This document shows, piece by piece, positions 962 to 21,880 of a stretch of 32,000 nt of DNA. How positions within the stretch are numbered: position 1 is the stretch's first letter; the number at the start of each line of letters is the position of its first letter. The position numbers and the translations under genes were made by a program. This DNA is from Pyrodictium abyssi (lineage in GTDB: Archaea; Thermoproteota; Thermoprotei_A; Sulfolobales; Pyrodictiaceae). Location: NCBI RefSeq assembly GCF_036323395.1, contig NZ_AP028907.1, forward strand, positions 990,001 through 1,022,000, read 5' to 3'. The notes beneath the pieces were generated by a model. The model saw only the letters and a program-made list of their open reading frames with translations. It ran no database searches and had not been told where the DNA came from.

Positions 962-1705
962 GTGTACGACAGTGGACGTAGATACGTTTGTATACCCCGG
1001 GGTATCACCGGGGCAGGGGCAAGACGCCTAGCCATAGAGGTCTACGACACCCTGGAATCCACCATGGACACGCCGCCCCCACGCTTCCCCGGCGTGACAA
1101 TAGCCCTCGAGCAGACAAGGGGCCGCGGCCGCCGCGGTAACACCTGGACAAGCCCCCGCGGCGGCGCCTGGCTAACAATCCACCTCCCCGGCCCTCCGCC
1201 CCAGGCGGCGCCCAGCCTCCTTCCAGTCGCCCTCGGCGGCTGCCTAGCCGAGGCCCTCGAGCAGCTCCCCGGCGTAGAGCCAGGGGCGATAAAGGTCAAG
1301 TGGCCCAACGACCTCTACACGGCTCGGGGCAAGCTAGCCGGCATACTAGTCGAGACAGCCGGCGACACGCTCCGGGTAGGCATAGGCGTCAACGTCTACA
1401 ACCAGGCACCGCCCGGCGCCGCGCGGCTAGCAGACCACGGCTACCGAGGCCCACTAGCCCTCGTATACCTAGCAGTAACAGAGGCAGTACTCACCTCCCT
1501 AGAGCAGCCACACCGGGGCCTACAGGCGGCAAGGGAGAGAGACATGCTCAGAGGCCTCCATGTAGTGCTAGAGACGCCTACCGGCAGGCTAGCCGGAGTA
1601 GCCAGGGGCGTCACTGACACCGGGGCACTCGCCCTAGAGACTAGCGAGGGCATAGTAGAGGCCTACTGCTGCACCGTACTGACGTGGAGAAGGCTCCCAG
1701 GCTAG
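962..1705 (+). CDS. birA: biotin--[acetyl-CoA-carboxylase] ligase (BirA-type, no obvious N-terminal HTH)
   Basis: ORF 962..1705 (GTG start). It contains the biotin-protein-ligase signature QTRGRGRRGNTWTSPRGGAW, followed by KWPNDLY and GILVE blocks. It lies divergent to accC. Confidence 0.8.
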   Translation: MYDSGRRYVCIPRGITGAGARRLAIEVYDTLESTMDTPPPRFPGVTIALEQTRGRGRRGNTWTSPRGGAWLTIHLPGPPPQAAPSLLPVALGGCLAEALEQLPGVEPGAIKVKWPNDLYTARGKLAGILVETAGDTLRVGIGVNVYNQAPPGAARLADHGYRGPLALVYLAVTEAVLTSLEQPHRGLQAARERDMLRGLHVVLETPTGRLAGVARGVTDTGALALETSEGIVEAYCCTVLTWRRLPG

Positions 1706-2453
1706 CACAGCGGCGCCGCGACAGAGAGGATATTCGCTAGCATCTGCGACATAACTTAACAGTGAGTGGAGAGGCCGGTCAGAGCATCAGGCGGCATCGC
1801 GGAAGGGAACTGGTAGTAGCCTAGGCCCCTGGAGAAGGGGGAGAGATGCTCCGAACACTCGAAGAAGACCGCGGGCTCTACCGGCCCTCATGGGGCTCAT
1901 AGGTTACTGCAAGGGGTCCAAGCGTCGGGTTCACTGTGACACCGAGGATTTCGTCTACTATCCCCAGCCGCAGTCGAGGTTAATCTCGTAGTATGCGGCG
2001 GCGAACACATAACTCATAGAGGTAGAGTCACGGGCCTCTCGTGGCAGTGTTGCAGAACTCTACCGGAAGAGTAGGACTTTCAAGAAGGACGCCCGCGTTG
2101 AACCACACGCCTAGTACTCGTAGCAGGAACTATAGACCTTGAAGCATACAAGGCAGCAGCAAGGCTAGGAATTAAGCTCAAGCCTGCAGTCAAGGAGTAG
2201 AGCTGTAAAAATACAATGAATACACGATGCAGGCATCCCAAGTGTTTCTAAGATTATTAGCTACACATGTGCAATTTGTCCTGGTGCCTAACTCGGTTTC
2301 CGGTAATCAAAACACCTATGTCATGGTATGGAATAACTTGCAGCCATGATGCTTGATTAACCTATTTGCGACTCTGCTAAGTAATCTATACACAGATTGA
2401 TGTGAGTGATATGATAGAGTTCTAACTAGCTAATTGACACCTTGATATTTCAG

Positions 2454-5400
2454 CTATCGGCGACATATCAGTACCAAAGTAGCCAGAATCGTGACTATCA
2501 ATAGTATTAGTGTAGCTTTTACCTCGGGTGCTATGATAGGTTCTTTGAGCTTTATTGTCGTGGTAGTTGTTCTTTCAACGGTTTTTGTTTCTGTCCTGGT
2601 TTCAGTCACGGTATAGGGTACTGTTATCGTTATTATTCTCGTATTAGTCTTAGTGTATGTTGTAGTTAAAGGAAGTGTCATTGTTTCTTTCTTAATATTT
2701 GTGGTCGTGATGGTTCTAACTATGGGTATAGTGATACTAGTTGTTATTGTGTGTGTTGCCGTTGCTGTAGTTGTTTTAGTTTTAGTATAAGTTGTGTTGA
2801 TGGTTTTTGTTATAGTAGTTGTCATTACAGCGGTAACGGTTTTGGTGAATGGTATACCGACTACTTTGTCGGTAGGGAGTATGTGTAGGGAATTAAGATC
2901 TACTTCTACACTTTGAGAGTCGAGATATCTTCTCGGTAGACTGGGAATACAGTATGGTAGTCCTATATCACCCCACGTATCGATCCATACTATGAGTATG
3001 AACTTGTTGTTAACGTGGAGGAGTTGTAAGGTTTCCAAGGGTATTTTAATTTCTATCACGTCACCAAAGCATCCAAGACCAAGAGTCTCTATGCCTATTG
3101 TGCGAGGAATAGATAATGGTATATTTATTCGATCATCGAAAGTATGTATATTCATGTCTCTATCGAATATAAGTGTTAGCCTATTTTGTACGGTGTATGG
3201 TTTATCGAAAAACTCTATCGCTATGTATAAGTATTTATTATCGCGGGCAACATATACGCTTTTTATAGCATTCCCTAGAATAGGACTGTTATCTACATAC
3301 TTGTCTCTTGTTATATTGAGTATATATTTTGAATTGGCAATCCAGTCACTGATATCACAGTCAATAAATATCCTTCCAGCAAATACATCATGAAGATCAC
3401 TTATATTATCTCTATCAGTATCACGCGAATTAGGATTAGTTCCATAAAGCAGCTCAACCCAATCCGGTATGTAATCTCCATCAGTATCTTGATACTTAAC
3501 ATAGTAAATCTTGTTGAGTAATCTATCTACAATATTTTCGGCACCGCTATAGTCGCCGTCCTTTAAATACGTATAGGCTCTTTGGAGTTCCTCGTAGAAG
3601 CTAGATGTATCTATAGCCCTTGATATCATGTTAATCATCTTTTTAGCTGCAACTAGCTTGCCTAGTATCCTCGGATAGGTACCATTAATGAATGCTTCAA
3701 CTTCTGCTACTGATACGTTTAAGTGAGTATAATTACTGTAGAATTCAAAGAAGTCAGTAGACTTGCCGCCAGTGAGACGGTTAAGAGCATTAATGAATTC
3801 ATCTTTCGTGATTATGTTCGTTTGATTGAAATAACGTATCAATTCGCTGATCATAGTCTGATAGAGCCATTGATTAAACGGATACAATGCAAACTCTGGA
3901 TCAGCTTTCCAGGCTACATACTCTAGATAAGCCATATGTAGTGTATCAGGAGCAAGTGTAAAATTCTCGCGTATGAAGTCTAAATATGAGTAGAAATAGT
4001 CGTGCCACTTTCCCTGTTCGATGAATCCCCGGAGCATAGTTTTATTAAGCTTTAGATTTCTGACTTCATCGAAATATTTAGACATATCAATTCCGAACTC
4101 CTTCTTCAGAAGAGTGGCTGCCTCGGTATCAGACACTAGCTGCCATTTCTTGTCTGCCACTACTAATCCATGGAGCTTGTAAATATCTAGTAGACCCCTA
4201 GTTGCGTTTCTCAATATATTATCTAAGTAAAACATAGCTAGAGGCGCATATACATACTTTATGTAGACTGGCCCGCCCCAGCCAGTTCCCATAGCAGACT
4301 TTCTTTCCTCAAAAGAACGCATATAAATGAGATATCTTGGCATTATCAGAGAGCCGTTATATATAGGATTCTTTGTCACAATGGAGGCTGCAACATATCC
4401 TAGGTAGTCCTGCATGCCTTTGTACCATATACGCTCAGATGCATTCTCAAATTCGAGATCGTAAATGCCGTTAAGCCAAATGGCGGCATAATGATGAAGT
4501 ATATGGCCTATCCTCCAAATCATATCGTTATGGAATACCCCTAACCTATCATAGAGCCCTAGATCATTGATATAATTTTGGGCTTGCCCTGCTCCTTCTG
4601 GCAGGGTTTTCCTCAATGGAAACATGTATACTCGGTCGAGAGACGGCAAATTCAGGAGTTTTGCCATAGTATATACTCCACGTGCAACTATGTCGGCCTT
4701 ATACTGTGCGCCCAGATAGATGTCGTATGTTCCATCATAGAAAGCCATGTTAAGGGTATCATTAAGCAGAATGTCTGAGGAGAATAGGGGAAAGTATGCT
4801 GTGATAGTCTCTACTCTACTTTCTGCAAGCTTATACAATTTGCCTGCTAGGAAAGGTGAGTGTAGAAAGAGGCTGTACTCGCTAAAGTATAATAAGTCTC
4901 CTATACGTTGGGTATAAGAGGCAATTACAAACCAATTTCTAAGAACACCATCGAGTCTAATGGTGACAGAACTCGGCTCAAGGCTAGACGGTTGGAAGAA
5001 CAGCATTCTCGGCCAGAGCTGTACATGTTCTTTTCCAACGTCTACTATTAATACTCTTTTAGGCAGGTAGCCTCCCTCGCCAGGCGAATAATACCATACA
5101 AGCTTTGGAAACGTGTAGTTGAACCAGGCCCATTCATGGCCAGCTACCTCCAAGGTAAGAAGGCCACGGGAACGGTCATAGCTATAGGGAGTGCTAGATC
5201 CGCTTATCTCTATGAAGTCTCTTATGTAATCGCCTATAGAGAAGACAGCCTTCTCTGCACCATGCGTGCGGAACTTGACTAGAACCCATCCCCCACCTTC
5301 AGGATTTATATGAAGTACATATTCTATATCTGACGTTGGTGGAGCTAGAGTCTGCTGAGTCGTATCTAAGCTATAAGTAGTTATTGAGGTGTAGAGTACA

Positions 5401-5456
5401 GTTAAGATAACTACGAACCATATAACAATAGTGAATCCATTAGTATTGATTGTCAT
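2454..5456 (-). CDS. large (1000 aa) membrane-anchored, probably glycosylated cell-surface protein
   Basis: Intact 3-kb ORF in a strongly AT-rich block. It has an N-terminal hydrophobic segment (FTIVIWFVVILTVLY) and many N-x-S/T sequons. An acidic DxDxD calcium-type stretch is present (DTDGDYIPDWVELLYGTNPNSRDTDRDNISD). Near the C-terminus there is a ~100-aa Thr-rich stalk (TKTVTAVMTTTITKTINTTYTKTKTTTATATHTITTS...) followed by a TM anchor (ATLILLIVTILATLVLICRR). Confidence 0.85.
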   Translation of the reverse strand: MTINTNGFTIVIWFVVILTVLYTSITTYSLDTTQQTLAPPTSDIEYVLHINPEGGGWVLVKFRTHGAEKAVFSIGDYIRDFIEISGSSTPYSYDRSRGLLTLEVAGHEWAWFNYTFPKLVWYYSPGEGGYLPKRVLIVDVGKEHVQLWPRMLFFQPSSLEPSSVTIRLDGVLRNWFVIASYTQRIGDLLYFSEYSLFLHSPFLAGKLYKLAESRVETITAYFPLFSSDILLNDTLNMAFYDGTYDIYLGAQYKADIVARGVYTMAKLLNLPSLDRVYMFPLRKTLPEGAGQAQNYINDLGLYDRLGVFHNDMIWRIGHILHHYAAIWLNGIYDLEFENASERIWYKGMQDYLGYVAASIVTKNPIYNGSLIMPRYLIYMRSFEERKSAMGTGWGGPVYIKYVYAPLAMFYLDNILRNATRGLLDIYKLHGLVVADKKWQLVSDTEAATLLKKEFGIDMSKYFDEVRNLKLNKTMLRGFIEQGKWHDYFYSYLDFIRENFTLAPDTLHMAYLEYVAWKADPEFALYPFNQWLYQTMISELIRYFNQTNIITKDEFINALNRLTGGKSTDFFEFYSNYTHLNVSVAEVEAFINGTYPRILGKLVAAKKMINMISRAIDTSSFYEELQRAYTYLKDGDYSGAENIVDRLLNKIYYVKYQDTDGDYIPDWVELLYGTNPNSRDTDRDNISDLHDVFAGRIFIDCDISDWIANSKYILNITRDKYVDNSPILGNAIKSVYVARDNKYLYIAIEFFDKPYTVQNRLTLIFDRDMNIHTFDDRINIPLSIPRTIGIETLGLGCFGDVIEIKIPLETLQLLHVNNKFILIVWIDTWGDIGLPYCIPSLPRRYLDSQSVEVDLNSLHILPTDKVVGIPFTKTVTAVMTTTITKTINTTYTKTKTTTATATHTITTSITIPIVRTITTTNIKKETMTLPLTTTYTKTNTRIITITVPYTVTETRTETKTVERTTTTTIKLKEPIIAPEVKATLILLIVTILATLVLICRR

Positions 5457-5616
5457 ATCTAAGTCTCCACGTCATATAAATCTGGATATACTCGACATCT
5501 TTAAACGTTGTTGTTACTCAAATAATTCATAAAGTGTACACAAGTTATTGGTATTACTGAGCCTCTTCCAGGCCTTCCTCCGCATATTGCTTAGGTTTCT
5601 AGTCTGGGGCCGGGCT

Positions 5617-6147
5617 GTGATCCTGTCTGACCGCGATATAGCCTGGTATATAGAGAAGGGGCTGCTCCGCATCGAGCCGCTGATGAACGACACGATAAGG
5701 GAGAACGGTGTGGATCTCCGGCTGGCGGAGGAGTTCTGCCGGTTCAACCCCGAGGCGCCGGAGCTCGACACGGCTCGGGGCTTCGACGAGGAGACCTACT
5801 ACATCTGCACCCGCGTCTCCCCCGAGGAGGGCTACGTGATAAGGCCCTACGAGCACGTCCTAGCCACGACCGCCGAGACCGTCTGCCTCCCCGACGACCT
5901 GGTAGGCCTCGTTAACGTGCGGAGCACCTACGCCAGGCTCGGGCTCTTCGTGCCCCCGACGGTGATAGACGCGGGGTTCTGCGGCCAGGTAACCATCGAG
6001 ATAATCGGCTCCGCCTACCCGATACGCGTCTACCCCGGCCAGCGCTTCCTCCACGTAGTGTTCATCAAGACCACGAGCCCCGTAGCCAACCCCTACCGGG
6101 GCAAGTACCAGGGCCAGCGCGGCGTAACCTTACCCAAACCAGACTAG
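5617..6147 (+). CDS. dcd: dCTP deaminase (dUTPase-fold)
   Basis: ORF 5548..6147. The conserved N-terminus ILSDRDI begins at the in-frame GTG at 5617. Blocks RSTYARLGLF and DAGFCGQVTIEI are typical of Dcd. The 23 codons upstream look like non-coding read-through. Confidence 0.9.
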   Translation: MILSDRDIAWYIEKGLLRIEPLMNDTIRENGVDLRLAEEFCRFNPEAPELDTARGFDEETYYICTRVSPEEGYVIRPYEHVLATTAETVCLPDDLVGLVNVRSTYARLGLFVPPTVIDAGFCGQVTIEIIGSAYPIRVYPGQRFLHVVFIKTTSPVANPYRGKYQGQRGVTLPKPD

Positions 6148-6244
6148 GGGAGGAAGGGCCCCTGGCACCAGGCACGCTGCTTAGACAGCACCATTATAGG
6201 TCTTAGAGCTGCTCATACTACTCTACCGGGGTGTCTCCGGGGCG

Positions 6245-6775
6245 TTGGCCGAGACAGTCACAGTCACCCTCCCCCGCAGGCTCGCTGAGCACGCGCGCCG
6301 CGAGGCCGAGAGGCTAGGACTAGGCCTCCAAGTGTACATCGTGGAGTTGCTCTCGGAGGGCCTAGACCCCGAGGAGCGTGCCCGGGACTACGCCGAGGCC
6401 GCCACAGCTCTTCTCGGGTAGGCCCGCGAGGAGCTGGAGAGGGGCGACGTGAGGCAGGCTGCCGGGAAGGCTTGGGGCGCTGCTGCGCTGGCCGTGAAGG
6501 CCTACGCGTGGTGGAGGGGCGGCAAGAGGCTCACCAGCCACCGGGAGCTATGGATGTACAAGAGGGTGCTCGAAAAAGAGCTAGGAGAATGGGTCAGCGA
6601 CGCCTGGGCCGCGGGCAACGAGATGCACACCTGCTTCTACGAAGGCTGGTGCGCCGAAAAGGACGTGGAGAAGGCCCTAGAGAGGATCAAGAGACTAGTC
6701 GAGGAGGTCAAGGCCCGCGTCAGCGGAGAGAAAGCATGCAACAACACGGCGCAGAATACCCGGCAAGAGCCATAA
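6245..6775 (+). pseudogene. RHH-like N-terminus plus PaREP1-family (HEPN-clan) domain, interrupted by an in-frame TAG at 6419..6421
   Basis: TTG at 6245 gives LAETVTVTLPRRLAEHARREAERLGLGLQVYIVELLSEGLDPEERARDYAEAATALLG, then TAG, and the same frame continues AREELERGDVRQAAGKAWGAAALAVKAYAWWRGGKRLTSHRELW...EMHTCFYEGW (ORF 6449..6775). The stop falls inside what reads as one continuous helix of PaREP1-type proteins. Confidence 0.6.
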
Positions 6776-6801
6776 CGCCCCAGGCTCTCATGCCCCGGGG
6801 G

Positions 6802-7209
6802 CTAGTCTCCTATGTAGATCACGTTGTCCAGGCCTTTGAACAGCTTATCCCCGGTCACCAGGTCCGTGTAGTTGAGTATGGCGGTCGTGTAGACTATTGC
6901 GTCCGCGAGGCTTGGGGCCCTGAGCCCCAGGCTTCTGGCCCGCTGTAGTAGCCGCATGTACTGTTTTGCCGCCTCCAGCGCTATGCCCACGTCTATGTCT
7001 ACTATCCATGTCCTAGGCCTCTATGAAGAGTAGGCGCTTTATCGTCTCGTTGGCGTCAAAGCCCTCCCGGATCTGCTTTCTAGCCGGCTCGGCGAGTACT
7101 ATCGATGGAGTGTAGCCTCTCCTCTCTAGGAGGGGCTGCCCCGCTATCCCCCTTGGCTGTGCCGCGGAAGTACCCTGGCCCATGCATATGTGTCGTAGAC
7201 TATCCATTT
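6802..7209 (-). pseudogene. PIN-domain (VapC-like) toxin gene broken across several frames
   Basis: PIN-like pieces occur in consecutive minus-strand frames. They read (M)IVYDTYAWA, then YFRGTAKGD, then LLERRGYTPSIVLAEPARKQIREGFDANETIKRLLFIEA (ORF 7013..7207), then IVDIDVGIALEAAKQYMRLLQRARSLGLRAPSLADAIVYTTAILNYTDLVTGDKLFKGLDNVIYI (ORF 6802..6990). Directly upstream (about 7210..7290) lies MFGVDRGKLCGLAGEYRLEDRKW, which could be an antitoxin C-terminal tail. Confidence 0.55.
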
Positions 7210-7577
7210 CCGGTCCTCTAGGCGATACTCCCCGGCGAGCCCGCAGAGCTTGCCTCTGTCCACGCCGAACATGTCGTCAGATATCCCGGCTTTCTCTAGA
7301 ACAGGGGCCTCTATCACATCCTCTATGAGGAGAAGCCCTGCTGCTCCTGCAGCCTCCTCGGCAGGTCATACACCCCCTTACGGATACAGACGACTCTGCC
7401 CGACGCTCCGCTTACCCCTGGCCCTCCCTAGAGCTAAGTGCTATACACCAGAGAGCCCCTAGTACCCTACACCCTTCACCGTCGCGATGAGCCGGGGAGA
7501 TGCACTCGACACAGCCCTGGGGCCGCCCCCGGGGGCCAGCGCGAACCGGCATAGCCTCCCCGTGCACAGGGTATAGC

Positions 7578-7847
7578 CTAGCAGGCACGCTCGTGGCTAC
7601 TAGGAGCCTCCCCGGGATAGAGATCCTCCACTACCTCCAGATACCCCGCCTTCCCCTTGGGGAGCCCTTCAGCATGGAAGCGATCTCTTCGAGACCCTCC
7701 TTCATCGAACAATTGCCCTAGCCCCTCCAGAACCCTTACCCGTCTGCAAGCGGGGCCTGCTAGGGCTGCTGCTACAGCCCTCTTAGAGGCCACATATCCG
7801 AGGACCATGTAGAGCCCTGCCATGAGTGCTAGGAGCACAGCCGCCAC
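7578..7847 (-). CDS. small hypothetical protein with N-terminal TM segment
   Basis: ORF only (MAAVLLALMAGLYMVLGYVAS...). No recognisable motif. Confidence 0.25.
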   Translation of the reverse strand: MAAVLLALMAGLYMVLGYVASKRAVAAALAGPACRRVRVLEGLGQLFDEGGSRRDRFHAEGLPKGKAGYLEVVEDLYPGEAPSSHERAC

Positions 7848-7939
7848 CAGTAACCCCTGGCCGGAGTCATTGGCAGAATTGGCAGAAGAAGTGTAGGCTG
7901 CCGGGGAGGCTCCGAAGGACAGGGCAAGGGGGGCATGGT

Positions 7940-7972
7940 CTACACGTACTCTACACGTATACTACATGTAGT
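7940..7972. repeat. three tandem 11-nt units: CTACACGTACT / CTACACGTATA / CTACATGTAGT
   Basis: Read directly from the sequence. The period is 11 nt. The third unit contains the perfect palindrome CTACATGTAG. It lies in the spacer between the divergent ORFs 7578..7847 (minus) and 8047.. (plus). Confidence 0.9.
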
Positions 7973-8046
7973 CTGTGCCCCTATCCCCGCGGGGTGTCCC
8001 AGGCTGTGAGCCGTGCTGAGGCCCGGGGCGCCGGGCCCCCGGCCAT

Positions 8047-8242
8047 GTGGAGGACAGTGTGCCCCTGGAGGTCCTCGAGCGGGTGGCCAGGGAGCTCCGC
8101 CGCCACGGGGTGGATGCCGACGTGGCTTGTAACCCTCTCGGGGGTCTACGAGCTCTACATCCTCGACGAGGACGACCAGAAAGTGGACCAGCTCTGCGAG
8201 GAGGGGCGGCTCAGCAGGGAGACCCAGCGGCTGCTCTGCTAG
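8047..8242 (+). CDS. small hypothetical protein; the reading frame appears to switch mid-gene
   Basis: ORF 8047..8250 starts MEDSVPLEVLERVARELRRHGVDADVA. The coding-looking C-terminus GVYELYILDEDDQKVDQLCEEGRLSRETQRLLC is in the frame of ORF 7826..8242. Confidence 0.3.
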
Positions 8243-8549
8243 CAGCCTAGCTCCTCGTAGACGTTCTCCCTGTAGCCCAGCCTCTCAATCCTCACAATGC
8301 ACTCCCGTGGGTCGAGCCAGTACGCTACCCGGAGCACGCCTACCCGTAGCCTGTAGAAGCCCCGGCAGCGGCCGTGCAGCGGCTCCCCGCGTAGGGGTTC
8401 TCCATGAGCAGCTGCCGGGCTTGCTCGTAGTACGCAGCCGCCTCCGGGTGGCGCTTCAGCCACCTCCTCGCATGCCGGGAGCGCTTCACCCGCCACTCCC
8501 TGCACTCCTCGTGCACAGAGAGAGCACCCCTAACCCCCGCACCCCACAA
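8239..8549 (-). pseudogene. RelE/ParE-family toxin with an apparent 1-nt frameshift
   Basis: The N-terminal half is in the frame of ORF 8340..8549 (EWRVKRSRHARRWLKRHPEAAAYYEQARQLLMENPYAG). The C-terminal half is in the frame of ORF 8239..8505 (EPLHGRCRGFYRLRVGVLRVAYWLDPRECIVRIERLGYRENVYE, the typical yRiRvGdyRviY...hR..vY pattern). The junction is at the C4 run 8385..8388, and one extra base there restores a single ORF. Confidence 0.6.
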
Positions 8550-8897
8550 ATCATAAGCACGCCCCAGGGGCGAGCATGAAACAATGCCGCCTAAATGAAC
8601 CGGTGAGGCAGCGTCGCTAAGGATTGTCCGGGCATACCGGGGCTCCCGGCGCCACGGGCCCAGCCCAGGGCCAGAGGCATGCAGTACTCCGCGTTAACCC
8701 CCACATGGAGCACCGGCTGAACACGTCTAGCGTATGAGTAGCTACATCGCCGCCTACCCCAGAGGAGCATCCCCGCAGAATGAGGCTGGTCATCGACTCC
8801 TAGGGGGACAGTAGGCCCAGCCCAGAACCCCTGGTAGCTCCACGGTCATGTCCATAGGCGAGCAGAAAAAGGCCCCGAGACACCCCGGAGACAACAG

Positions 8898-10436
8898 CTA
8901 GCCCCCGGCCGAGAGCCTCTCCATAAGCTTCTCGAGTAGAACAGCTGCCAAGCTGCCGAAGACGCTAGCAGCAGCGGCGACACGTGGGAGGAGAAGCTGG
9001 GGCGCAAGATGCAGGGCAGGCTCTAGAGCCCTACGAGCTTCCAGGCTGGTCCATGCAATGCCTGTCCCCTGTACCTGGCTTAACGCCCCTGTAAGAGCTA
9101 GAGCAGCAGAGAACACTATTAGTACTACCATAGGCTTCAGCATGCTATCCTCGTAGTGTATCGAGCTTTTTGATATTTTAGAAACAAAGGCAGCTACTAT
9201 GGCTGCAAATGCTGCTACTATGCCGAGAAGTCTATAGTAGTAGAGGTGCTCGAGAGGTAACATCGCCAGAAAGAAGGCTACTAGAGCATTCACTAGAGCT
9301 GATGCAGCGAGAGGGGCAGCAAACTCTTCAAGCTCTATCCTCCTATAGTAGTGGTATCGACGGCTGGCTCGGAGTATGGAGAACAGTGCGTAGGAAGGGG
9401 CTACGAACACTGCGATGGCAGAGGCAAGAATGATAAAGCCGGTAATAGCCTCTACTTGTAAATACGGCAGTACGGTAGCGGCTTCTGGTAGTATCTGTGG
9501 TGAGATGAATAGCCACACGCGTATGGCTAGTATCACTGATGCTGCAACAACGGCAGATGCGGCTATATGTCGTTGCCATTGTTGCTCTCCTTCAGCCTCA
9601 TCCTCTAGGCAATCAGCGTAATACCCTTTATTGGGGAGTGCCAGTAGAGTTGCAATTCCTAGAGATAGAATGGCAAGCATAAAGTCGAGGATGAACACAG
9701 CCAAGCCCTCTCCGCCAGCGCCGCGGCCGGCAGCGGTTATTGCGATGAAGACGGCTGCAGCGGATACTGGCAGCACGATGTGCGCTATGCGGGTTCGTAT
9801 CCGTAGGAGTGGTGTATCTTTGATAGGGAGTCTCAGTGAAATGGGCTTCAGCGGCCTTGCGGCGAACAGCAGGGCCTGTGAGGTCACCAGGACATGGAAG
9901 GCTATGGTGACAAGTAGCACGGCTACCGAGAGCAGTGATGGCTCTAGCATGTCTATGGTTATGAGCCCGGTGTTGGTCTTTATGAGTATGGTGAATGTTG
10001 GGTGGAGGCTTGTCTCCAGTGGCGCTGTCACGTCTAGCAGTGTTGGGCCGGTTACGCCGTCTAGTATGTCCTCTAGCAGCCCCGTGTCGCCGCAGACCTT
10101 GCTCTCCTTGATGGTGTTTAGTATCAGCTCGGCTGCCAGCTTCTTGGAGTTGTTGTCGAGGTTGCCGTCCTTGAGGGCGTCTAGTAGGGGTAGTAGCACC
10201 CCTAGCATGCTCCTGCCGGTTATGACCGTGGCGGAGCGGGGCTCGCCCCCGTTGGCGCACGCGTAGTGTATGGTTACCTTCGACATGTTGTAGATGTAGA
10301 GTGTGTGGCCGCCGCAGGACGTGTGGACGCTGGTGAGGAGCGTCAGCGATGCCGTGAAGGCTAGTATCGTTGAGGATGCCGACGCCAGGACTAGTGCCAG
10401 CAGCGCCGCCAGCGGCACGCCTCCCGGCCGCACCAC
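8898..10436 (-). CDS. polytopic membrane protein (512 aa) with an N-terminal signal-like segment and ~150-aa extracytoplasmic domain
   Basis: Long intact ORF with repeated hydrophobic stretches (more than 8 predicted by eye). All overlapping ORFs on either strand (9209..9433, 9628..10260, 9631..10266 and others) have low-complexity R/S/P-rich translations. A T5 run follows on the coding strand (A-run 8866..8870), a possible terminator. Confidence 0.75.
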   Translation of the reverse strand: MVRPGGVPLAALLALVLASASSTILAFTASLTLLTSVHTSCGGHTLYIYNMSKVTIHYACANGGEPRSATVITGRSMLGVLLPLLDALKDGNLDNNSKKLAAELILNTIKESKVCGDTGLLEDILDGVTGPTLLDVTAPLETSLHPTFTILIKTNTGLITIDMLEPSLLSVAVLLVTIAFHVLVTSQALLFAARPLKPISLRLPIKDTPLLRIRTRIAHIVLPVSAAAVFIAITAAGRGAGGEGLAVFILDFMLAILSLGIATLLALPNKGYYADCLEDEAEGEQQWQRHIAASAVVAASVILAIRVWLFISPQILPEAATVLPYLQVEAITGFIILASAIAVFVAPSYALFSILRASRRYHYYRRIELEEFAAPLAASALVNALVAFFLAMLPLEHLYYYRLLGIVAAFAAIVAAFVSKISKSSIHYEDSMLKPMVVLIVFSAALALTGALSQVQGTGIAWTSLEARRALEPALHLAPQLLLPRVAAAASVFGSLAAVLLEKLMERLSAGG

Positions 10437-10643
10437 CCCCGGCCCTCTACAAGGAGCCTGGGGCCTTCTAGAGCGGAGAGGGTGCAGATATAACGCTTGC
10501 CGTGGGCTATAGCGGGTGTAGCCGTGTAGGCCCGGGGGCTCTGGGTGTACAGCTGTAGAGGGCTAGCGGGAGCGGGTAGAGGGGCACGCGGCAGAGCCCG
10601 GGGGCCGTCGGCGCGGCTACGCCGGGCACCCGGGGCCACGCGC

Positions 10644-11093
10644 CTAGGCGGACCCGCCGCTCTCCCGGGGGTACTGGTCCTCCTGGGCCGGGTTCTCTGC
10701 TAGGCTGTCCAGGATACCCCGCAACAGCGTGGCGAGCTCCTCCCCGGCGCCGAGGTGCCAGAGGAGCTGCTCGGTGTCGAGGAACTCGTGGTAGAAGTTC
10801 GCGTGGAGCCTCTCAGCGGCCTCGAAGAGCGCCACAAGGCGGCCCGGGTCCCCACTGTAGAGGCTCTCGTAGAGTGCGGCCAGCTCCGTCTTCACGAACA
10901 TCTTCGCCTCTCTGTGCCGGGCGAGAGGCCCCCTGCCCAGGAGCAGGCCTATCATAGACAGCAGCACCATTATCATGGACCATAGTGTTTCTCCCGCCTT
11001 TACGAGCTCTCCCTCGGCTTTCAGCCTCGCGTACTGGCTGTAGCGCTCCCGGAGCATCTCCTCGTACTCCGCGAGCACCTCCACGAGGCTCAT
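10644..11093 (-). CDS. PaREP1-like / HEPN-clan helical protein
   Basis: GETLWSMIMVLLSMIGLLLGRGPLARHREAKMFV...AAERLHANFYHEFL shares its layout with the PaREP1 domain at 6449..6775 (GKAWGAAALAVKAYAWWRGGKRLTSHRELW...EMHTCFYEGW). Confidence 0.6.
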   Translation of the reverse strand: MSLVEVLAEYEEMLRERYSQYARLKAEGELVKAGETLWSMIMVLLSMIGLLLGRGPLARHREAKMFVKTELAALYESLYSGDPGRLVALFEAAERLHANFYHEFLDTEQLLWHLGAGEELATLLRGILDSLAENPAQEDQYPRESGGSA

Positions 11094-11341
11094 GCCGGGC
11101 TCCCTACGAGAGGCATAGACCTGCTCTTCAGCGCTAGTATACGTCCATCCTCGTCTACCTCGGCCACATACCTCCTAAACAGGTACATGAACTCTATAAC
11201 CCAGACCCCGTTCCTCCTATCAACGCTGATGATGGAGATGTACTCGGGAACCATGTTGAACTCCCTGATCTTCTCCTTTAGCCTCTTAACAGCATCAGCA
11301 GCATCCACTACCGGCACACCAGCACACCACAGAATAGCCAA
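11090..11341 (-). CDS. small (83 aa) protein translationally coupled to the PaREP1-like gene
   Basis: Its stop overlaps the downstream ATG in a 4-nt ATGA-type overlap at 11090..11093. No motif recognised. Confidence 0.5.
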   Translation of the reverse strand: MAILWCAGVPVVDAADAVKRLKEKIREFNMVPEYISIISVDRRNGVWVIEFMYLFRRYVAEVDEDGRILALKSRSMPLVGSPA

Positions 11342-11583
11342 AACCCCGCCGGAGGACTCTTAAGCCTTCATAGAGCCAGCCCGCTACAGCCACCAGGAGA
11401 CCGCCACAGGCAGCCCGAAGCAACACGCTACACACCACACATGAGGCAACGCAGCCCCCGGGACGGGAGGGGACCCCGGCCCGGGGAAGGCCCTATCCGG
11501 GTGACCGGGGCGGCCCCGGGTACAGCTAGATACTCTGAGTATCTGGTCTTGTCTGGGAGGGTGGGGGGTGTCCTGCCGGGGCT

Positions 11584-11727
11584 ATGGCTATGCTCCGGGT
11601 ACGAGTAGGCAGGAGAGGCACAATCGTCCTCCCGAAGAGGGTGCGGGAGCAGCTAGGCATAGAGGAGGGCACGACCCTGGAGCTAGAGGTAGACGGTGAC
11701 AAGATAGTGCTCCGCCCACCGCCCTGA
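11584..11727 (+). CDS. AbrB/SpoVT-family antitoxin-like protein (47 aa), below the ORF-track size cut-off
   Basis: Manual translation gives MAMLRVRVGRRGTIVLPKRVREQLGIEEGTTLELEVDGDKIVLRPPP, the classic swapped-hairpin AbrB pattern. No intact toxin gene follows. Confidence 0.6.
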   Translation: MAMLRVRVGRRGTIVLPKRVREQLGIEEGTTLELEVDGDKIVLRPPP

Positions 11728-11977
11728 ACCCCTATGTGGAGGCATCCATCACCTCTATAGGACGGCAAACCCTGGAGCCTGTCCGTGGGGGGACACTTCA
11801 AATACGCGTTCATTATTATGTCGAAAGCTAATATAGTGCTACTAGGCATAGCTGCAACACGGGTGGGCTGGGGTACGCCCAGCCCGACGGCCCATTGAGG
11901 CCGTCGCCCCGCCTGCTCCGGCCCCGGCCGGTGGGGCGGGGTGGTCGGCTGATGAGCCCTCCTCTCTTCTGCTTCTC

Positions 11978-12819
11978 TCACGTCTGTTTGGGGATCACCT
12001 TGAACCACACGGGCTTCTTTATGAGTGGTTTGACCGCCTCGAATACCTCGTCCTCGCTGTAGTTCAGGTACCGGTATACGGCTTAGGCGAGTAGGTCTGC
12101 AAACTGTATTCCGAGTATGAGCTTAGAGTCGCCCAGGAAGATCTCGGCTATGCGGGATAGTTTTACCGTGCCATGCTTTGTTATGGCCCCGGTTGACTGC
12201 GAGATAGCCGAGCCTACGATGCTGTATGTCGAGTTTATGAGGTTGTTCGCGTCAGCATCGAACAGTATGATACCGTCTACGCCACGCGCTGCTAGCTCCC
12301 GGTCAACCCGGTAGAGTATCTCGTTCACGACCTGTGACTTCACCACTGTATCGTACACAGCGTTGGCTACACTCCTTATTATGCGGTCTCTCACAGCGTC
12401 TATTCTAAGAGAGTTCAAGGTACTCGGTACCCGGGTTATGTAAAATGCTCACTATCCTGCCGATGACGCTCTTATCTATTATCTCTATAAAACCCTCCTT
12501 GTTGATAGCCACGACTGTTAGGAATGGGTCAAACGCGTCTAGCCCCCGCAACAAGTGCTATGAGATCAGCGTAACGGCTGCTCTTGTTCCTATTCCTCAG
12601 CGCCTTGTGTATCTCTGAGCCCTTAATCTCGGAGCCTACATGTATACCCTCGTCCACAAGGAATCTGCGAACCATGTCTGCGATAGAGCCGAGCTTTCGA
12701 TGCTCGACAAGGGGGACGCCAAGCGCAGCTACGACATAGTATCTCTCGTCCCTCCTCTTCAGACCCGGTACTCCGGACTCGTCTATACAAACAGCAAACA
12801 CGACATAACCCGGTCTCAT
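11978..12819 (-). pseudogene. DUF3800-family gene with at least two frameshifts and one in-frame TAA
   Basis: Pieces in order on the minus strand. First MRPGYVVFAVCIDESGVPG...EIKGSEIHK...LIALVAGA (ORF 12529..12912). Then a frame change to DAFDPFLTVVAINKEGFIEIIDKSVIGRIVSILHNPGTE. Then a frame change to LNSLRIDAVRDRII...SKLILGIQFADLLA (ORF 12083..12418). An in-frame TAA at 12083..12085 follows, then AVYRYLNYSEDEVFEAVKPLIKK. The DESG start and the QxAD near the end are the DUF3800 hallmarks. Confidence 0.6.
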
Positions 12820-13660
12820 ATATCGCCCAAGGAGAGTAGTACTTGATATAAGAGATAGCTCCTGTAATACCGATACGAGACACCATAGCCAGAACCATAG
12901 ACGGTAATACAACTATGCCAGCCCTGGCAGCGCGGGCCCCCGCCCGAAGCCCCCCGGGGCATCAAGAGAACCGGGCAAGACACAGCCCCCCGAGGCAGGG
13001 CGTTGCCAAGGCCCTATCATGGAGTTCACCCCAGCGGTACACCGGCAGGCTTCATCGCCTCTTCCGCCTCCACCCTACACCCCGGTAGCCGTGCTGAGTG
13101 TTGCCAGCTCCAGGGCGGGGGCCTAGGGAGAAGATGGAGGAGTACAGGGGTAGGGTCAACCGGGCCGGGGCGCCTGGGGCTCGTCGAGGAGGGGGCCAGG
13201 CGGCTAGAAGCCGAGGAGAACATGAGGGGGATCGTCGAGGAGCTAGAGAAGACGCCGGTCCCGGGCGCCCAGCGGCTTCTCGGAAACCCCTGTCAGGGGA
13301 GGACCGCGGCGGCGGTCGACGCCCTCCCCCGGCACCCCGCTGCAGAGGCCCCGGAGGGGCCAGCCCCTACCCCGTCGACGCCGTACACCAAGCCCCGCCC
13401 CAGGGGCGGACCCCTCTGGCCTAGTCTAGGAGCAGGCGCCTAGCATAGCCCGGGGCGCCCCAGCTCGGCCAGAGACGCACGTGCACGGCTCAGAGGCGGC
13501 GTGCAAAAGCCTCCCGAGAAGCCCGGCCCCGCCCCGGGCGGAGAGACAGTCCCCAAGATCCACGAGGACATAGTCGAGCTCGCTAGACGGGTCCGCCGCC
13601 CCGCAGAAGCACACGAAGAGCCCAGCAGGATTCTCGAGCAGGAAAGGGAGCGGCACAGCT

Positions 13661-13836
13661 AAACCACGTCACCAACGCACCCCGGGCCACCAACAGCCAC
13701 ACACCAGGCCAGAAACCCGGGCACACCAGGAGAAGAACCCAGACAACACACCAGCAAACACAGGCCACACCCCCACCCACAGCAGCCCAAATAAACCCCA
13801 CCACAACACCACACAACCCCACAACACGGAGCCAGG
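13661..13836 (+). other. C/A-rich, almost T-free tract immediately upstream of tRNA-Pro
   Basis: Between 13670 and 13845 I find a single T (13792, inside AAATAAA). The plus strand is essentially C and A with some G, with reiterated CCAC/ACAC/CAAC words. Minus-strand ORFs here (13583..13822, 13659..13952, 13669..13896) are G/V/W/C-rich shadows. Confidence 0.9.
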
Positions 13837-13838
13837 CC

Positions 13839-13951
13839 GGGGCCGTCGTCTAGCTTGGTAGGATGCCAGCCTGGGGACGCACCCCGCCGCCCCCACAGGG
13901 CGGGCGCCAGAGCGCTGGTGGTCCCGGGTTCGAATCCCGGCGGCCCCACCA
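13839..13951 (+). tRNA. tRNA-Pro (anticodon GGG) with a ~36-nt intron in the anticodon loop and encoded CCA
   Basis: The acceptor stem GGGGCCG/CGGCCCC is perfect. U8, G10, A14, G18G19 and A21 are present. The anticodon stem is CCAGC/GCTGG and the loop is CT-GGG-G. The intron spans about 13877..13912 and has an internal CCCGCC/GGCGGG hairpin. The variable loop is TGGTC and the T arm is CCGGG-TTCGAAT-CCCGG. The discriminator A plus CCA end at 13951. Confidence 0.85.
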
Positions 13952-14255
13952 CCAGACCCTAAACACAGCCTCGTTCTCCTTAATGATTGTGCACCCTAGT
14001 CATTGCTGTTTATGCTCTGCTATCATCACTAGTTGTATCTCGTGTCTTATTGTCGGCGTGTTTCGCGCTTCCCTGGAGTTATGATTGCTCTGGCTGTTCA
14101 GCGTGATTTAGATCGAATGTGGTTAACGGGCCAAGCTGGTTTCTCGTGGCATTGCGAGGATATTGGGATTGTTAGGGACGTAATGGCTTTGTAATGCAAT
14201 AGTTACGCCTGCGTCTCGTCTAGTTTAAAAGTCTATTCATGTAGACTATTACAGC

Positions 14256-14645
14256 ATGGAGATAGCTATGTCTGCATATGAGTTATTGATTATGTTCCTG
14301 GCACCGATGGCAGTAATATTCGGGTTAGGTCCTCTATTACGTGAGTTAAAGGCAGTATTGGGGTTGGCTAGTGCTGTACCAGTTATTGGCTTTACTATGA
14401 AGTTGGTCGTGCGTTCGGTGTCTGCGATAAATCAGATTTCCGCTGCTCAATCTCCAGAGGAGGTACTGTACACTATGGAGAATACAGCAAATGGGCTCGT
14501 CAATATGACTGCCGATTTTGCGCTAGAACGAGCAAGTGAAGCCGTCAGTACAGCATTAGTAGCACCCATCATGGCAGTACTTGGTATACTTGGTATAATT
14601 GGTGCGTTTGTTATCACTCTAATGTTATGGTATATGCGGAGATAA
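14256..14645 (+). CDS. small membrane protein (129 aa; two N-terminal hydrophobic segments and one C-terminal)
   Basis: ORF in the AT-rich block downstream of tRNA-Pro. Hydrophobic segments are LLIMFLAPMAVIFGLGPLL, LGLASAVPVIGFTMKLVV and LVAPIMAVLGILGIIGAFVITLMLW. Confidence 0.55.
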   Translation: MEIAMSAYELLIMFLAPMAVIFGLGPLLRELKAVLGLASAVPVIGFTMKLVVRSVSAINQISAAQSPEEVLYTMENTANGLVNMTADFALERASEAVSTALVAPIMAVLGILGIIGAFVITLMLWYMRR

Positions 14646-15489
14646 TAACTAAACGTTGGTTGTAATAGCATGTGTCTGTGGATAGCTTTGCTAGATTGAT
14701 GAGGTTACTGTGTGAGCTTGTGTTTCCCCGGGGCCCCGGGGAGCTGCCACCAGCTACCGCGGGGGTGTATTGCGTCGTGTCTGGTTCTGGGCGTGTGTCG
14801 GGTGCGCGTGGTCTTGGCGTGTTTTCTCGCGGCCTAGGGGGCTGGGGTGCCGAGGAGGCCGGGGCGAGGTGCTGGACGCGGCACGGCGCTTCAATGCCAG
14901 GTTTCAGGCCTGCTACGAGTACAGCAATACCCGGGAATGCGTACGGGCCAGGCTCGAAGATATGCTGGAGGGTGCCCGCAACCCTGCCCTCATTCAGTCA
15001 CTCCTCGCCCGCTCCGCAAGCCGTGGCCGGAGCTCTCTTCTTAGGTTTTAGGACTAACACCTCTCTTCCAGGGACCCTTCGAGTTCGACATACTATCTCG
15101 GCTGGATCCTTCAGCTTCTTGAGGATCTTGGTCAGTACATGTATATGTGGGTGATGGAGATATGGAGATAGGAGAATCATAATGACAAGCACTTGTGCGG
15201 GCTTATGGTAGCAAGTCGAACCACCGACCTTGGGGTTATGTGTCACATGGTCATTCTATCCCCTGTTACCCGATTCTTCGGCTCCTAGGACGCAGAGTTT
15301 ATGCAAAGTACTTACTGTATAGACTGTACGGACTGTGAGGGCAGTGTCTCTAGAACCGTTCAGAGTCCAGACCAAAAAGCCAAGGAGGGCTGTTCTTTTC
15401 CATGCACATTCCCCAAAGAATGAGTAGACAAGGTTAAACTACAGCCAAGAGTCTATATAGCGTGAGAGATAGACGGAAGAAACGGACTC

Positions 15490-15804
15490 GTGAATAAGGA
15501 AGTTAAGGTGCAGCCATTATGCCCAGCCCCAAGAAGGACCCCCGCAATCTATATAACTATAGCAGCAATATTTGCAGCAATCTTCGCGGCTACCATTCAA
15601 ACCTCTATGAGCGCACTCATAGCAGTATACCAGCTACAAGAAAATATAACAATGTTATACTTCTTAAGTGCTGTAGTCCTCTTCGCCTCGGTACCAGCGG
15701 GATATGGTATGCTAACTTTCGCAAAACGGGCTGCAGAGGCCTTCAGAGAAGGTAAAGATGGTTGCTCCACTCAACATGCAAACAAAGAAACGGACAGACC
15801 ATAA
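15490..15804 (+). CDS. small membrane protein (104 aa, two TM segments)
   Basis: ORF with GTG start in the AT-rich block. TM-like segments are AIYITIAAIFAAIFAATI and MLYFLSAVVLFASVPAGYGML. Confidence 0.45.
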   Translation: MNKEVKVQPLCPAPRRTPAIYITIAAIFAAIFAATIQTSMSALIAVYQLQENITMLYFLSAVVLFASVPAGYGMLTFAKRAAEAFREGKDGCSTQHANKETDRP

Positions 15805-15905
15805 GTCTCACTCAGAACATGGATCTACTCTCTACGCGAATATAGCATGTATTAACACTACACCAGAAATTCATAATTAGGCTGTAAAGGCAGTATATAG
15901 TTATA

Positions 15906-16050
15906 GGGGTGTCCCGCCCGGCGCCCCGGGGCTGGGTCCCCGGGACGGTGACAATTGCACCCGATTCGTCCTCCCCTCGTGGGGTCGGCGGAACAACTGT
16001 CTGTCATCCCGCCTCCGGGCGGGCCCGGGGCGCCGGGTCTCGGGCCCCCT
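15906..16050. other. GC-rich multi-hairpin element, a candidate structured RNA or protein-binding element
   Basis: Sharp GC-rich island directly after AT-rich sequence. The closing helix is CCCGGCGCC (15917..15925) with GGCGCCGGG (16029..16037). Internal hairpins are CCCGGGG-ctgggt-CCCCGGG, CCCC-tcgt-GGGG and CCCGCC-tccg-GGCGGG. No ORF is present. Confidence 0.4.
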
Positions 16051-16244
16051 TCTTCGCCTGGCGCTCAATCCAATTCTGATGAGTGCTATTACCTTTTAAG
16101 CATCCGGGGGACTTAGCACCTAGCGCTGCCACTATGCCGGGCAATGGTGCTGCTAGTGCCTGGCCTCCGTAGTACCGGAGGGCGGTGGTACGGTTAGCGG
16201 TGCGGGGCTAGACGGCGGCCGGATACATGCATGGATTAGTGCTG

Positions 16245-16460
16245 TTATGGCTTGGCCAGCAGCTTCTCTAGCTCAGTCTTAAACGGCTCAATGGCTCCAC
16301 GTATCTTTGATGCCGTGAGGGCTAGTTCGAAGTTGGCTTCTTCGATGGCTGCCTCCTCGAGCATGAGGGAGAGCCTGGTGGCGCGGTCTAGGGCGTCTAG
16401 GAGGTCTCGGGCTAGCTGGAGCGATCGTGGGGCCTGGGCGACAGCTGTCACGGGCTGCAC
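16245..16460 (-). CDS. small helical hypothetical protein (71 aa)
   Basis: ORF only. The translation is helical and coiled-coil-like (LQLARDLLDALDRATRLSLMLEEAAIEEANFELALTASKIRGAIEPFKTELEKLL). Confidence 0.35.
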   Translation of the reverse strand: MQPVTAVAQAPRSLQLARDLLDALDRATRLSLMLEEAAIEEANFELALTASKIRGAIEPFKTELEKLLAKP

Positions 16461-16574
16461 CTCTTGGGCTGTGGCTTTGTGGCCACCCTCTAGCTATATG
16501 TGGTCCAGGGATACGCATAGCAGTAATACAATATCTGGATTATGTACGTTAGCGGCGTCGCTGTAGGCGGTGCT

Positions 16575-16684
16575 CTGCGCCCCTAGTCCAGTGGTGAGGC
16601 GCACAGCGGGTCGGGTTAACTGGCCGGAACAGAGCCCGGGCTATAGGTGCGGCTCACCGTGGCATGGGCTCAGCCAGGGCGCAG
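16575..16684. other. ~110-nt long imperfect hairpin, a candidate structured RNA
   Basis: The outer helix CTGCGCCC (16575..16582) pairs with GGGCGCAG (16677..16684), 8 bp. The inner helix GGTGAGGCGCAC (16593..16604) pairs with GTGCGGCTCACC (16647..16658), 11 of 12 bp. It lies in an ORF-poor spacer. Confidence 0.35.
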
Positions 16685-16855
16685 GGCCACATGTGCATCT
16701 AGGTTTAGTCTGCTATACGCAGTGGCGCCATGTAGCATGTTCTGGGCAGTGTAAAGCTGGGTCCACCGGATACTGTCCGGCTGAGACCATGAAGTCTCAG
16801 AGGAGACGCGAAGAAAACATGTGCGTCCTGTTCGAGCCCTGCCGAGTACGGCGCG

Positions 16856-17263: not shown

Positions 17264-17266
17264 TCA

Positions 17267-17315
<49 letters not shown>

Positions 17316-17505
17316 AAGCGTTGTACCGGAGGCGTAATGTGCGCCAGCACTGCTCTATACGGGCATCCTTCTCTAGCAATGCACATGCTTCGTAGGAATT
17401 TTAGCCCTATCCCCTTGTGCTGGACAGCCATAGCTCTCCACGAGTTACTGTGCTGCGTCGTGTGCTGGGGCCCGTAGGCTGCGCTGAAGGGGCTTTGCTG
17501 CCTAC

Positions 17506-21874: not shown

Positions 21875-21880
21875 GGAGGG

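Follow-up and report, generated by a model that had tools for sequence, protein, structure and literature searches.

Low-GC 'flexible' islands encode cell-surface glycoproteins in archaea, haloarchaea among them, and catalysis by zincin-type metallopeptidases requires the general-base Glu of their HExxH motif. Archaeal secreted proteins can be anchored by a class I signal peptide combined with a C-terminal transmembrane helix, an arrangement that is recognised (PMC2910488). Here we describe, within a 32,000-nucleotide stretch of the Pyrodictium abyssi genome (contig NZ_AP028907.1, positions 990,001 to 1,022,000 of the forward strand; hereafter the window), a single AT-rich gene for a protein of 1000 amino acids (aa) that lies between the biotin-protein ligase gene birA and the dCTP deaminase gene dcd. 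We consider it probable that this gene is a foreign cassette of ~3.9 kb and that it encodes a surface pseudo-aminopeptidase of the M61 type, which would act as a non-catalytic ligand binder (coordinates of all features are given in Table 1).

The gene order accC (minus strand), birA (plus) and dcd (plus) is found in all three related Pyrodictiaceae genomes whose dcd neighbourhoods were compared, those of Hyperthermus butylicus, Pyrofollis japonicus and the metagenome-assembled genome (MAG) GCA_054020655.1. There, birA and dcd are separated by only 18, 8 and 85 bp, respectively, as against 3.9 kb in the window, a difference that points to an insertion. By tblastx, the window is collinear with the three sister loci from its start, within accC, through birA until ~1690 and again from ~5607 onwards, where dcd follows, with no match in between; the right edge of the insertion was set by the return of the GC content together with similarity to the sequence upstream of the sister dcd genes. 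The dcd product of the window shares 81% identity with its counterparts in both H. butylicus and P. japonicus and 74% with the Pyrodictium occultum protein, identities which by sequence place the host in the Pyrodictiaceae.

The inserted segment also differs from its surroundings in composition. Measured in 500-bp windows, the GC content is 0.35-0.44 across ~2100-5575, the lowest-GC part of the entire 32 kb, versus 0.59-0.72 on both sides, and the coding sequence (CDS) at 2454-5456 has a GC content of 0.397 compared with 0.619 for the remainder of the window. Its GC content at third codon positions (GC3) is 0.380 against 0.71 for the birA-like gene, 0.85 for dcd and 0.67-0.87 for most other GC-rich open reading frames (ORFs) of the window, so that the deviation is one of codon usage and goes beyond amino-acid content. 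Besides this CDS the insert holds no ORF longer than 53 aa. The portion adjoining the birA stop, ~1706-2100, is non-coding (no ORF above 37 aa) with a GC content of 0.55-0.63, and the rest of 1706-2453 is AT-rich; for this whole interval Rfam returned nothing at E<=1, none of the loci fetched for comparison resembles it, and a structured RNA sought in 1650-2500 was not found. An antisense ORF at 2992-3393 (plus strand) was rejected as a gene, its apparent homologues arising only from its position opposite the conserved one.

Searches for relatives of the encoded protein define a small family, all of whose members are apparently archaeal. A search of 5.8 billion clustered proteins returned 10 homologues at 56-65% identity, and an exhaustive hidden Markov model search of 1.84 billion representatives added one further full-length protein (P0011, 34% identity) and about eight at roughly 20%; all remaining matches of the latter search are confined to a segment with TSP3-type motifs, more than 100 multi-repeat proteins matching only profile positions ~615-660. 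Scanning one genome per species yielded a single additional locus, in a Pyrodictium delaneyi MAG (71% identity). A word-indexed homology search with a diverse family profile found no further members, scans of metagenome contigs and of viral contigs found no relatives, and the insert gene had no match in phage and plasmid collections (tblastn) or viral contigs. Two members carry names at NCBI: Pcal_0429 (WP_193322831) of Pyrobaculum calidifontis is a 'DOMON domain-containing protein' and WP_068577279 of Thermococcus chitonophagus an 'S-layer protein'. No Pfam model covers the family, and literature searches turned up no work on Pcal_0429 or on M61-like proteins of archaeal surfaces.

At no homologue locus is any flanking gene held in common with the window. 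Loci L005 (the P. delaneyi MAG) and L006 have one context in common, with a TIM-like gene and a CN_hydrolase gene; in P. calidifontis (L001) a TnpB/Cas12f-like gene (OrfB_IS605) at 6363-7502 on the minus strand lies ~750 bp upstream of Pcal_0429; and the homologues at L007 and L011 are surrounded by toxin-antitoxin-type genes (PIN, VapB, MazE, DUF2283/DUF4258, UPF0175), surroundings characteristic of flexible parts of a genome. Across nine loci, the GC content of the gene is below that of its flanks at seven (gene and flank, respectively: window 0.397 and 0.619; L005 0.406 and 0.539; L006 0.405 and 0.582; L008 0.373 and 0.503; L009 0.389 and 0.453; L011 0.377 and 0.460; L001 0.501 and 0.575) and above it at the other two (L007 0.491 and 0.440; L010 0.470 and 0.367). 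Unrelated contexts and a GC content decoupled from the flanks indicate a gene moving between lineages, including the orders Thermoproteales and Desulfurococcales. In the P. delaneyi MAG the homologue occupies two overlapping ORFs (8457-8774 and 8737-11439, split near 8757), which reflects either a frameshift of the MAG assembly or a pseudogene. A neighbour of the L007 homologue (5792-8842, minus strand, ~1016 aa) was rejected as a paralogue, being similar only in its Thr-rich tail, with an unrelated ectodomain.

The window gene is intact and kept under purifying selection: compared with its nearest relatives, the proportions of nonsynonymous and synonymous differences (pN and pS) are 0.18 and 0.76, the latter saturated, and closer pairs within the family give dN/dS values of 0.12-0.17. 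Taken together, the data support a foreign, horizontally acquired single-gene islet. Saturation at synonymous sites relative to all sampled relatives, combined with a GC3 of 0.38 in a genome at ~0.8, further indicates that the immediate donor is unsampled, and residence in the present genome would then be short relative to the divergence from those relatives. An earlier first-pass annotation of this DNA, made from the letters alone, had described an AT-rich island at 1706-5547 with one large gene between birA and dcd and had suggested foreign origin. The abrupt shift from GC-rich to AT-rich sequence is borne out by both the 500-bp profile and GC3, and the single gene by a 1000-aa ORF on the minus strand between flanks that Pfam assigns to BPL_LplA_LipB and DCD; its foreign origin gains from the adjacency of birA and dcd and the absence of the gene in the three relatives, as well as from the unrelated homologue contexts. 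The AT-rich interval itself holds for ~2100-5575 but not for the leftmost ~400 bp, which are nonetheless part of the insertion.

Single-protein sequence searches of Pfam, NCBIfam and the PDB returned nothing significant for the encoded protein, and its relationship emerges at the level of structure. A first AlphaFold2 run on 11 close sequences (predicted local distance difference test, pLDDT, 52), whose Foldseek matches were already aminopeptidase N but with template-modelling scores below 0.2, was superseded by a model built from 20 sequences including distant members, which reaches a pLDDT of 90.2 and a predicted template-modelling score (pTM) of 0.90 over aa 40-860. The top three Foldseek matches of this model in the PDB are the M61 peptidases 4fgm, 8j9c and 7xyo (E 1e-12 to 5e-12 over ~500 columns), followed by more than 40 chains of M1 aminopeptidases, including IRAP, ERAP1, APN and factor F3; the sole viral structural match is an M1-like aminopeptidase as well. 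At the sequence level, six distant family members match Pfam Peptidase_M61_N and family profiles match the M61 structure 4fgm with E values of 0.1 and 0.0012, and in an hhalign comparison of the family with Escherichia coli PepN only the DFFEFY motif aligns, locally and weakly (PepN 413-446, E 0.18-0.44). The Pfam models Peptidase_M61 (PF05299) and Peptidase_M1 find no match in the window protein or among the 20 members, even at E<=1. According to the model, the main body of the ectodomain is an M61/M1-type aminopeptidase fold.

The helices that carry the active site in these peptidases are recognisable in the family and degenerate in the window protein. The motif register was taken from a MAFFT L-INS-i alignment of the E. 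coli PepN motif region with the family segment, which pairs PepN H297 (first His ligand, within HEYFHNW) with H321, the catalytic E298 with H322, the second His ligand H301 with A325, the conserved W303 with W327 and the Glu ligand E320 with K346; in the HMMER alignment to 4fgm, the EG position of the family falls on E307 ('FYEGMTSY'). A distant clade reads H-x-x-H-H-x-x-H-x-W ... E-G-x-x-x-Y-Y and keeps all three putative metal ligands. The clade of the window protein reads H318-I-L-H321-H322-Y-A-A325-I-W327 ... W344-Y-K346-G-M-Q-D-Y. His stands in place of the catalytic Glu in every member of the family alignment, and the window clade additionally has neither the second His ligand (Ala, or Thr/Pro, instead) nor the Glu ligand (Lys). 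Both HExxH, with its two His ligands and catalytic Glu, and the Glu third ligand of xEGxxxY are thus absent from the window protein, and the change from HExxH...E to HHYAA...K marks it as a pseudo-peptidase by canonical zincin criteria. Clades that are only ~20% identical agree without exception at R315 and H322 and to at least 90% at H318 and H321, which indicates that the motif helix is still functionally important. A phmmer search of the PDB with the motif segment of P0018, a member of the distant clade, returned His-tag artefacts only.

On either side of this aminopeptidase-like body, the protein carries features expected of an envelope protein. The hydrophobic segment at aa 7-28 probably serves as a signal peptide of the Sec type or as a signal anchor, and the C-terminal transmembrane helix lies at a position conserved among homologues. 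Two TSP3-type acidic motifs follow the helical domain, where the model shows a short acidic linker; Pfam TSP3_bac (PF18884) scores the window copy at 13.9 bits against a cut-off of 25 and matches nine of the 20 members (best E 8.6e-07), and the absence of the motifs from the P. calidifontis copies, where the linker is also shorter, suggests an accessory hinge. The beta-sandwich beyond them opens with an invariant I-D-G/C-D-I-x-D-W, which we take to resemble the start of CBM9/DOMON-like domains; this possible assignment draws on the NCBI name of WP_193322831 and on a weak profile match to the CBM9 structure 1i82 (E 0.14), Pfam giving no DOMON or CBM9 match in the window protein or the members in searches with the entire sequences rather than with this domain alone. 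Ile, Tyr, Asn, Lys and Thr are abundant in the protein. Against 6.9 +/- 2.3 N-x-S/T sequons expected from shuffling it has 14, a roughly twofold excess, and at least four of them (N471, N580, N591 and N714) do not vary within the close clade.

The means of anchoring varies within the family. A Thr-rich stalk followed by a transmembrane helix is present in the window clade, P0014, P0017 and P0018, whereas in P0011 the terminal transmembrane helix follows a linker of greater length without a marked excess of Thr. In four distant relatives (P0012, P0013, P0021 and P0041), and only there, an archaeal S_layer_C domain replaces stalk and helix as an alternative anchor. That different devices anchor the same ectodomain to the envelope is good indirect evidence of a function at the cell surface. 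P0018, with an ectodomain ~20% identical and the HHxxH...EG motifs of the distant clade, has a stalk and transmembrane tail near-identical to those of the window-clade proteins P0003, P0005, P0009 and P0010, over the C-terminal ~100 aa (ETSYITKTET...VERT..TRVET.TVTSVST.EK...TRTVAETLTTTAT...NW..T.AISV.LLVAGFA.GY..RK). These five proteins come from similar Joint Genome Institute (JGI) samples, and the common tail suggests that anchor modules are exchanged by paralogues within one organism.

Much of what the first-pass annotation had read into the protein stands, with corrections. The envelope-type architecture of N-terminal hydrophobic segment, Thr-rich stalk and C-terminal transmembrane helix is present in full, and the thrombospondin-type acidic loop occurs twice, below the Pfam threshold in this copy but matched in relatives; the 'dozens' of sequons come down to 14. 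The suspected gluzincin resemblance is right at the level of fold, where M61 and then M1 peptidases are the best matches and no lattice S-layer family is matched, but the motif had been set three residues off: the HExxH equivalent is not H318-I-L-H-H322 with Ile for Glu but H321-H322-Y-A-A325, with His for Glu and two ligands lost as well.

These observations can be assembled into a proposed history and function for the gene. A Pyrodictiaceae archaeon of ~62% GC would have acquired the cassette from a lower-GC lineage, exactly between birA and dcd, and the cassette would have brought along the AT-rich sequence upstream of the gene, a TTTATAT box included; given the promoter spacing generally known from archaea, the 17 nt between this box and the ATG would yield a leaderless or near-leaderless mRNA. 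We infer from the sequence features that the product is a type-I membrane glycoprotein, exported by means of its N-terminal hydrophobic segment and kept in the membrane by its C-terminal helix, while the Thr-rich stalk, presumably glycosylated, would raise an ectodomain of ~820 aa beneath or within the S-layer. Glycosylation would fall on the conserved sequons and on the stalk, and a Ca2+-binding TSP3 hinge would link the aminopeptidase scaffold to the possible CBM9/DOMON-like beta-sandwich, both the aminopeptidase-derived cavity and the beta-sandwich being presented outside the membrane. Since the catalytic Glu and two ligands are missing, binding rather than cutting is the most economical function, and the protein is most likely a surface ligand-binding protein whose scaffold would serve as a non-catalytic module for peptide, protein or glycan, in a role of capture, adhesion or recognition.

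Four other explanations were weighed, which we rank in the order of an unconventional peptidase, a native AT-rich gene, a redox or metal protein and an S-layer subunit. An active surface metallopeptidase that binds metal through its His cluster (H318, H321, H322 and perhaps D350 or Q349) and supplies peptides would be in keeping with the M61/M1 fold, with the conservation of R315 and the three His residues between such divergent clades, and with the three putative metal ligands (HHxxH...EG) retained in the distant clade; we nonetheless regard it as unlikely, given that the HExxH general-base Glu is missing in every member, that two of the three ligands are replaced in the window clade and that no member reaches Pfam Peptidase_M61 or Peptidase_M1. 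The gene might instead be native and ancient, AT-rich through selection or amino-acid composition and lost from the sister genomes. The P. delaneyi-type copies (L005 and L006), equally AT-rich at another locus, would then reflect a low GC content that is stable within the clade, and the amino-acid content of the protein, with its many Ile, Tyr, Asn, Lys and Thr residues, would contribute to it. However, GC3 is largely independent of amino acids and is 0.38 versus ~0.8 in the neighbours, the Pyrobaculum-type copies with a GC3 of 0.53-0.61 indicate that this protein does not require a low GC content, and the locus differs between the window and L005 and L006. Moreover, loss would require three independent clean deletions, each leaving a birA-dcd junction of 8-85 bp, which together with the GC3 gap makes insertion much the better reading, and a native origin is in our judgement distinctly improbable.

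Metal also figures in a third alternative, in which Cu, Fe or haem would be held at the His stripe or in a domain of the DOMON type and the protein would take part in redox chemistry or sensing, for instance in extracellular electron transfer. Metal respiration is known from several hosts of the family, one helix face in the distant clade bears four His, with a Glu in addition, and a homologue bears the DOMON name. The DOMON/CBM9 assignment is weak, however (E 0.14 and no Pfam support), and the insert contains no redox partner gene, so that we hold this explanation to be very improbable. We see equally little chance of a structural, lattice-forming subunit of an S-layer or sheath. Size, sequons and a Thr-rich stalk with membrane anchor are as expected of such a protein, S_layer_C occurs in relatives and the T. 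chitonophagus member is annotated as an S-layer protein, but that annotation rests on the anchor domain alone, and the patchy distribution of the gene, absent at this locus in three relatives, is unlike that of an essential lattice protein. The Pyrobaculum lattice is formed by an unrelated protein, PySLP, of 292 kDa with 19 Ig-like domains and homologues across Thermoproteota (bioRxiv 10.64898/2026.08.21.746120), and searches of Pfam, NCBIfam and the PDB revealed no homology of the window protein to lattice proteins of the PySLP, SlaA/SlaB or S_layer_N/C types. A wider view of the family starts from the stripe of four His plus Glu on the zincin helices (HxxHHxxH...EG) of the distant clade, Thermococcus-type relatives included. 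The aminopeptidase scaffold may have been re-purposed as a new extracellular metal centre for binding, sensing or redox functions, fitted with interchangeable anchors (Thr-rich stalk and transmembrane helix, or S_layer_C) and carried between crenarchaeal orders as a single-gene cassette without a recognisable integrase. We rate this as doubtful, at about the level of the active peptidase.

Several observations weigh against the reading that we prefer, a foreign cassette for a non-catalytic surface binder. No tRNA lies next to the insertion, the insert contains no integrase, transposase or other mobility gene, and its boundaries show no repeats of at least 8 nt, no att site, no target-site duplication and no terminal repeat. 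The left ~400 bp of the insert (1706-2100) are host-like in GC content. The sister genomes are distant (dcd 81-83% identical), which leaves the timing of the insertion loose, and there is no sampled donor, the nearest homologues being saturated at synonymous sites. As regards the protein, the n-region of its N-terminal segment is without positive charge, unlike those of the homologues, and the family-wide conservation of H318, H321 and H322 leaves room for a non-canonical metal site or activity.

Table 1. Features of the birA-dcd interval and of the protein it encodes (nucleotide positions in the window, aa positions in the protein)
Feature	Position	Strand	Evidence or remark
birA-like biotin-protein ligase gene, native left flank	962..1705	+	Pfam BPL_LplA_LipB, E 3.3e-17; collinear in sister genomes
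Inserted segment, ~3.9 kb	1706..5600	.	between birA stop and native dcd upstream region
Non-coding stretch 3' of CDS, within insertion	1706..2453	.	ORFs all <=53 aa
CDS, 1000 aa, predicted surface-anchored M61-like pseudo-aminopeptidase	2454..5456	-	ORF; homologues at 56-65% identity
C-terminal transmembrane helix, aa 979-997, then tail CRR	2466..2522	-	hydropathy; position conserved among homologues
Thr-rich stalk, 46/110 Thr (42%), aa 866-975	2532..2861	-	length and sequence vary among homologues
Beta-sandwich, possibly CBM9/DOMON-like, aa 695-855	2892..3374	-	confident beta-sandwich in model, aa 713-853
Two TSP3-type acidic motifs, putatively Ca2+-binding (DTDGDYIPD...DTDRDNISD), aa 656-690	3387..3491	-	sequence DTDGDYIPDWVELLYGTNPNSRDTDRDNISD
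All-helical domain with family-invariant S-x-DFF-x-[FY]-Y (aa 566-573), aa 401-655	3492..4256	-	model secondary structure; invariant columns
Thermolysin-like (zincin) catalytic-type domain, mixed alpha/beta, aa 228-400	4257..4775	-	Foldseek; profile match to 4fgm
Third-ligand helix WYKGMQDY, aa 344-351, K346 at Glu position	4404..4427	-	distant-clade EG, PepN, 4fgm
Degenerate HExxHxW helix HILHHYAAIW, aa 318-327	4476..4505	-	family alignment; MAFFT alignment with PepN
Beta-sandwich, predicted equivalent of Peptidase_M61 N-terminal domain, aa 44-225	4782..5327	-	AlphaFold2; Peptidase_M61_N in relatives; Foldseek
N-terminal hydrophobic segment, aa 7-28	5373..5438	-	hydropathy scan; common to homologues, whose n-regions are charged
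TATA-box-like TTTATAT	5474..5481	-	read from sequence; 17 nt to ATG
dcd, dCTP deaminase, native right flank	5617..6147	+	Pfam DCD, E 3.1e-32; GTG start at 5617 inferred

Beyond dcd, some 19 kb (6150-25500) are not matched in the sister genomes by anything that lies within 8 kb of dcd. On the far side of this region lie eIF-1A (25507-25764), RIO1 (30458-31153) and a KH-domain gene, which in Pyrofollis are found 4-6 kb from dcd. Many ORFs of 6150-25500 are without a Pfam match, and patches of lower GC content (0.45-0.53) occur at 9000-10000, 12000-12500, 14000-16000 and 20000-21000; the lack of synteny and these further low-GC patches place the insertion on the border of a more extensive variable region. 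Directly downstream of dcd, in the non-syntenic part, a PaREP1/PaREP8-family protein is encoded at 6449-6775 on the plus strand (Pfam E 4.4e-20). A tRNA at 13839-13948 (plus strand; Rfam 46 bits), not reported by ARAGORN, spans 110 nt and for that reason probably contains an intron.

The locus offers a clean case of single-gene horizontal acquisition in a hyperthermophilic crenarchaeon, with a GC3 that is 30-50 points off that of its neighbours, and adds to the view of archaeal envelope proteins as among the most exchangeable of genes. It also defines a rare archaeal family (with Pcal_0429 and WP_068577279) around a surface module that derives from M61 and lacks the canonical active site, for which cultivable species exist in which to ask what a surface pseudo-aminopeptidase does at 90-100 C; no new kind of system is revealed.

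Among described proteins, the closest are the M61 peptidases of the glycyl aminopeptidase type (4FGM, 8J9C and 7XYO; clan MA), with which the window protein has in common the beta-sandwich at the N terminus, the thermolysin-like domain and its antiparallel pair of 'active-site' helices, and further helical elements. It differs from them in reading HHYAA...K for HExxH...E, in its low sequence identity of 13-15%, and in the far greater size of its helical domain, to which TSP3 motifs, a second beta-sandwich, the Thr-rich stalk and the transmembrane anchor are added. The M1 aminopeptidases (PepN, APN/CD13, ERAP1, IRAP and tricorn-interacting factor F3) likewise present a layout of beta-domain, zincin domain and helical domain, with dozens of Foldseek matches at E ~1e-10 and alignable HExxHxW and xEGxxxY helices, and mammalian APN is also a membrane-anchored ectoprotein. 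In contrast to M1, however, the window protein has lost the catalytic Glu as well as ligands, no GAMEN-type exopeptidase motif was identified in it, and its anchor is C-terminal rather than N-terminal. The Ser/Thr-rich linker resembles those of Sulfolobus solute-binding proteins and SlaB, but the ectodomain is unrelated to that of the solute-binding proteins and no transporter genes are adjacent. In topology, the protein is the same as crenarchaeal surface proteins with a signal peptide and a C-terminal transmembrane helix (PMC2910488).

With low-GC islands the locus has in common a compositionally deviant segment, a glycosylatable envelope protein, a patchy distribution and a long adjoining variable region, and differs from them in consisting of a single gene, without glycosyltransferases or mobility genes, in a hyperthermophilic crenarchaeon. 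Overall, its parts are all of known kinds, namely an M61/M1 fold, TSP3 motifs and a Thr-rich stalk with a transmembrane anchor; what is new is their combination, the family-wide replacement of the catalytic Glu by His, the further loss of ligands in the window clade and the occurrence of the gene as a mobile islet of one gene, at a site that is empty in relatives.

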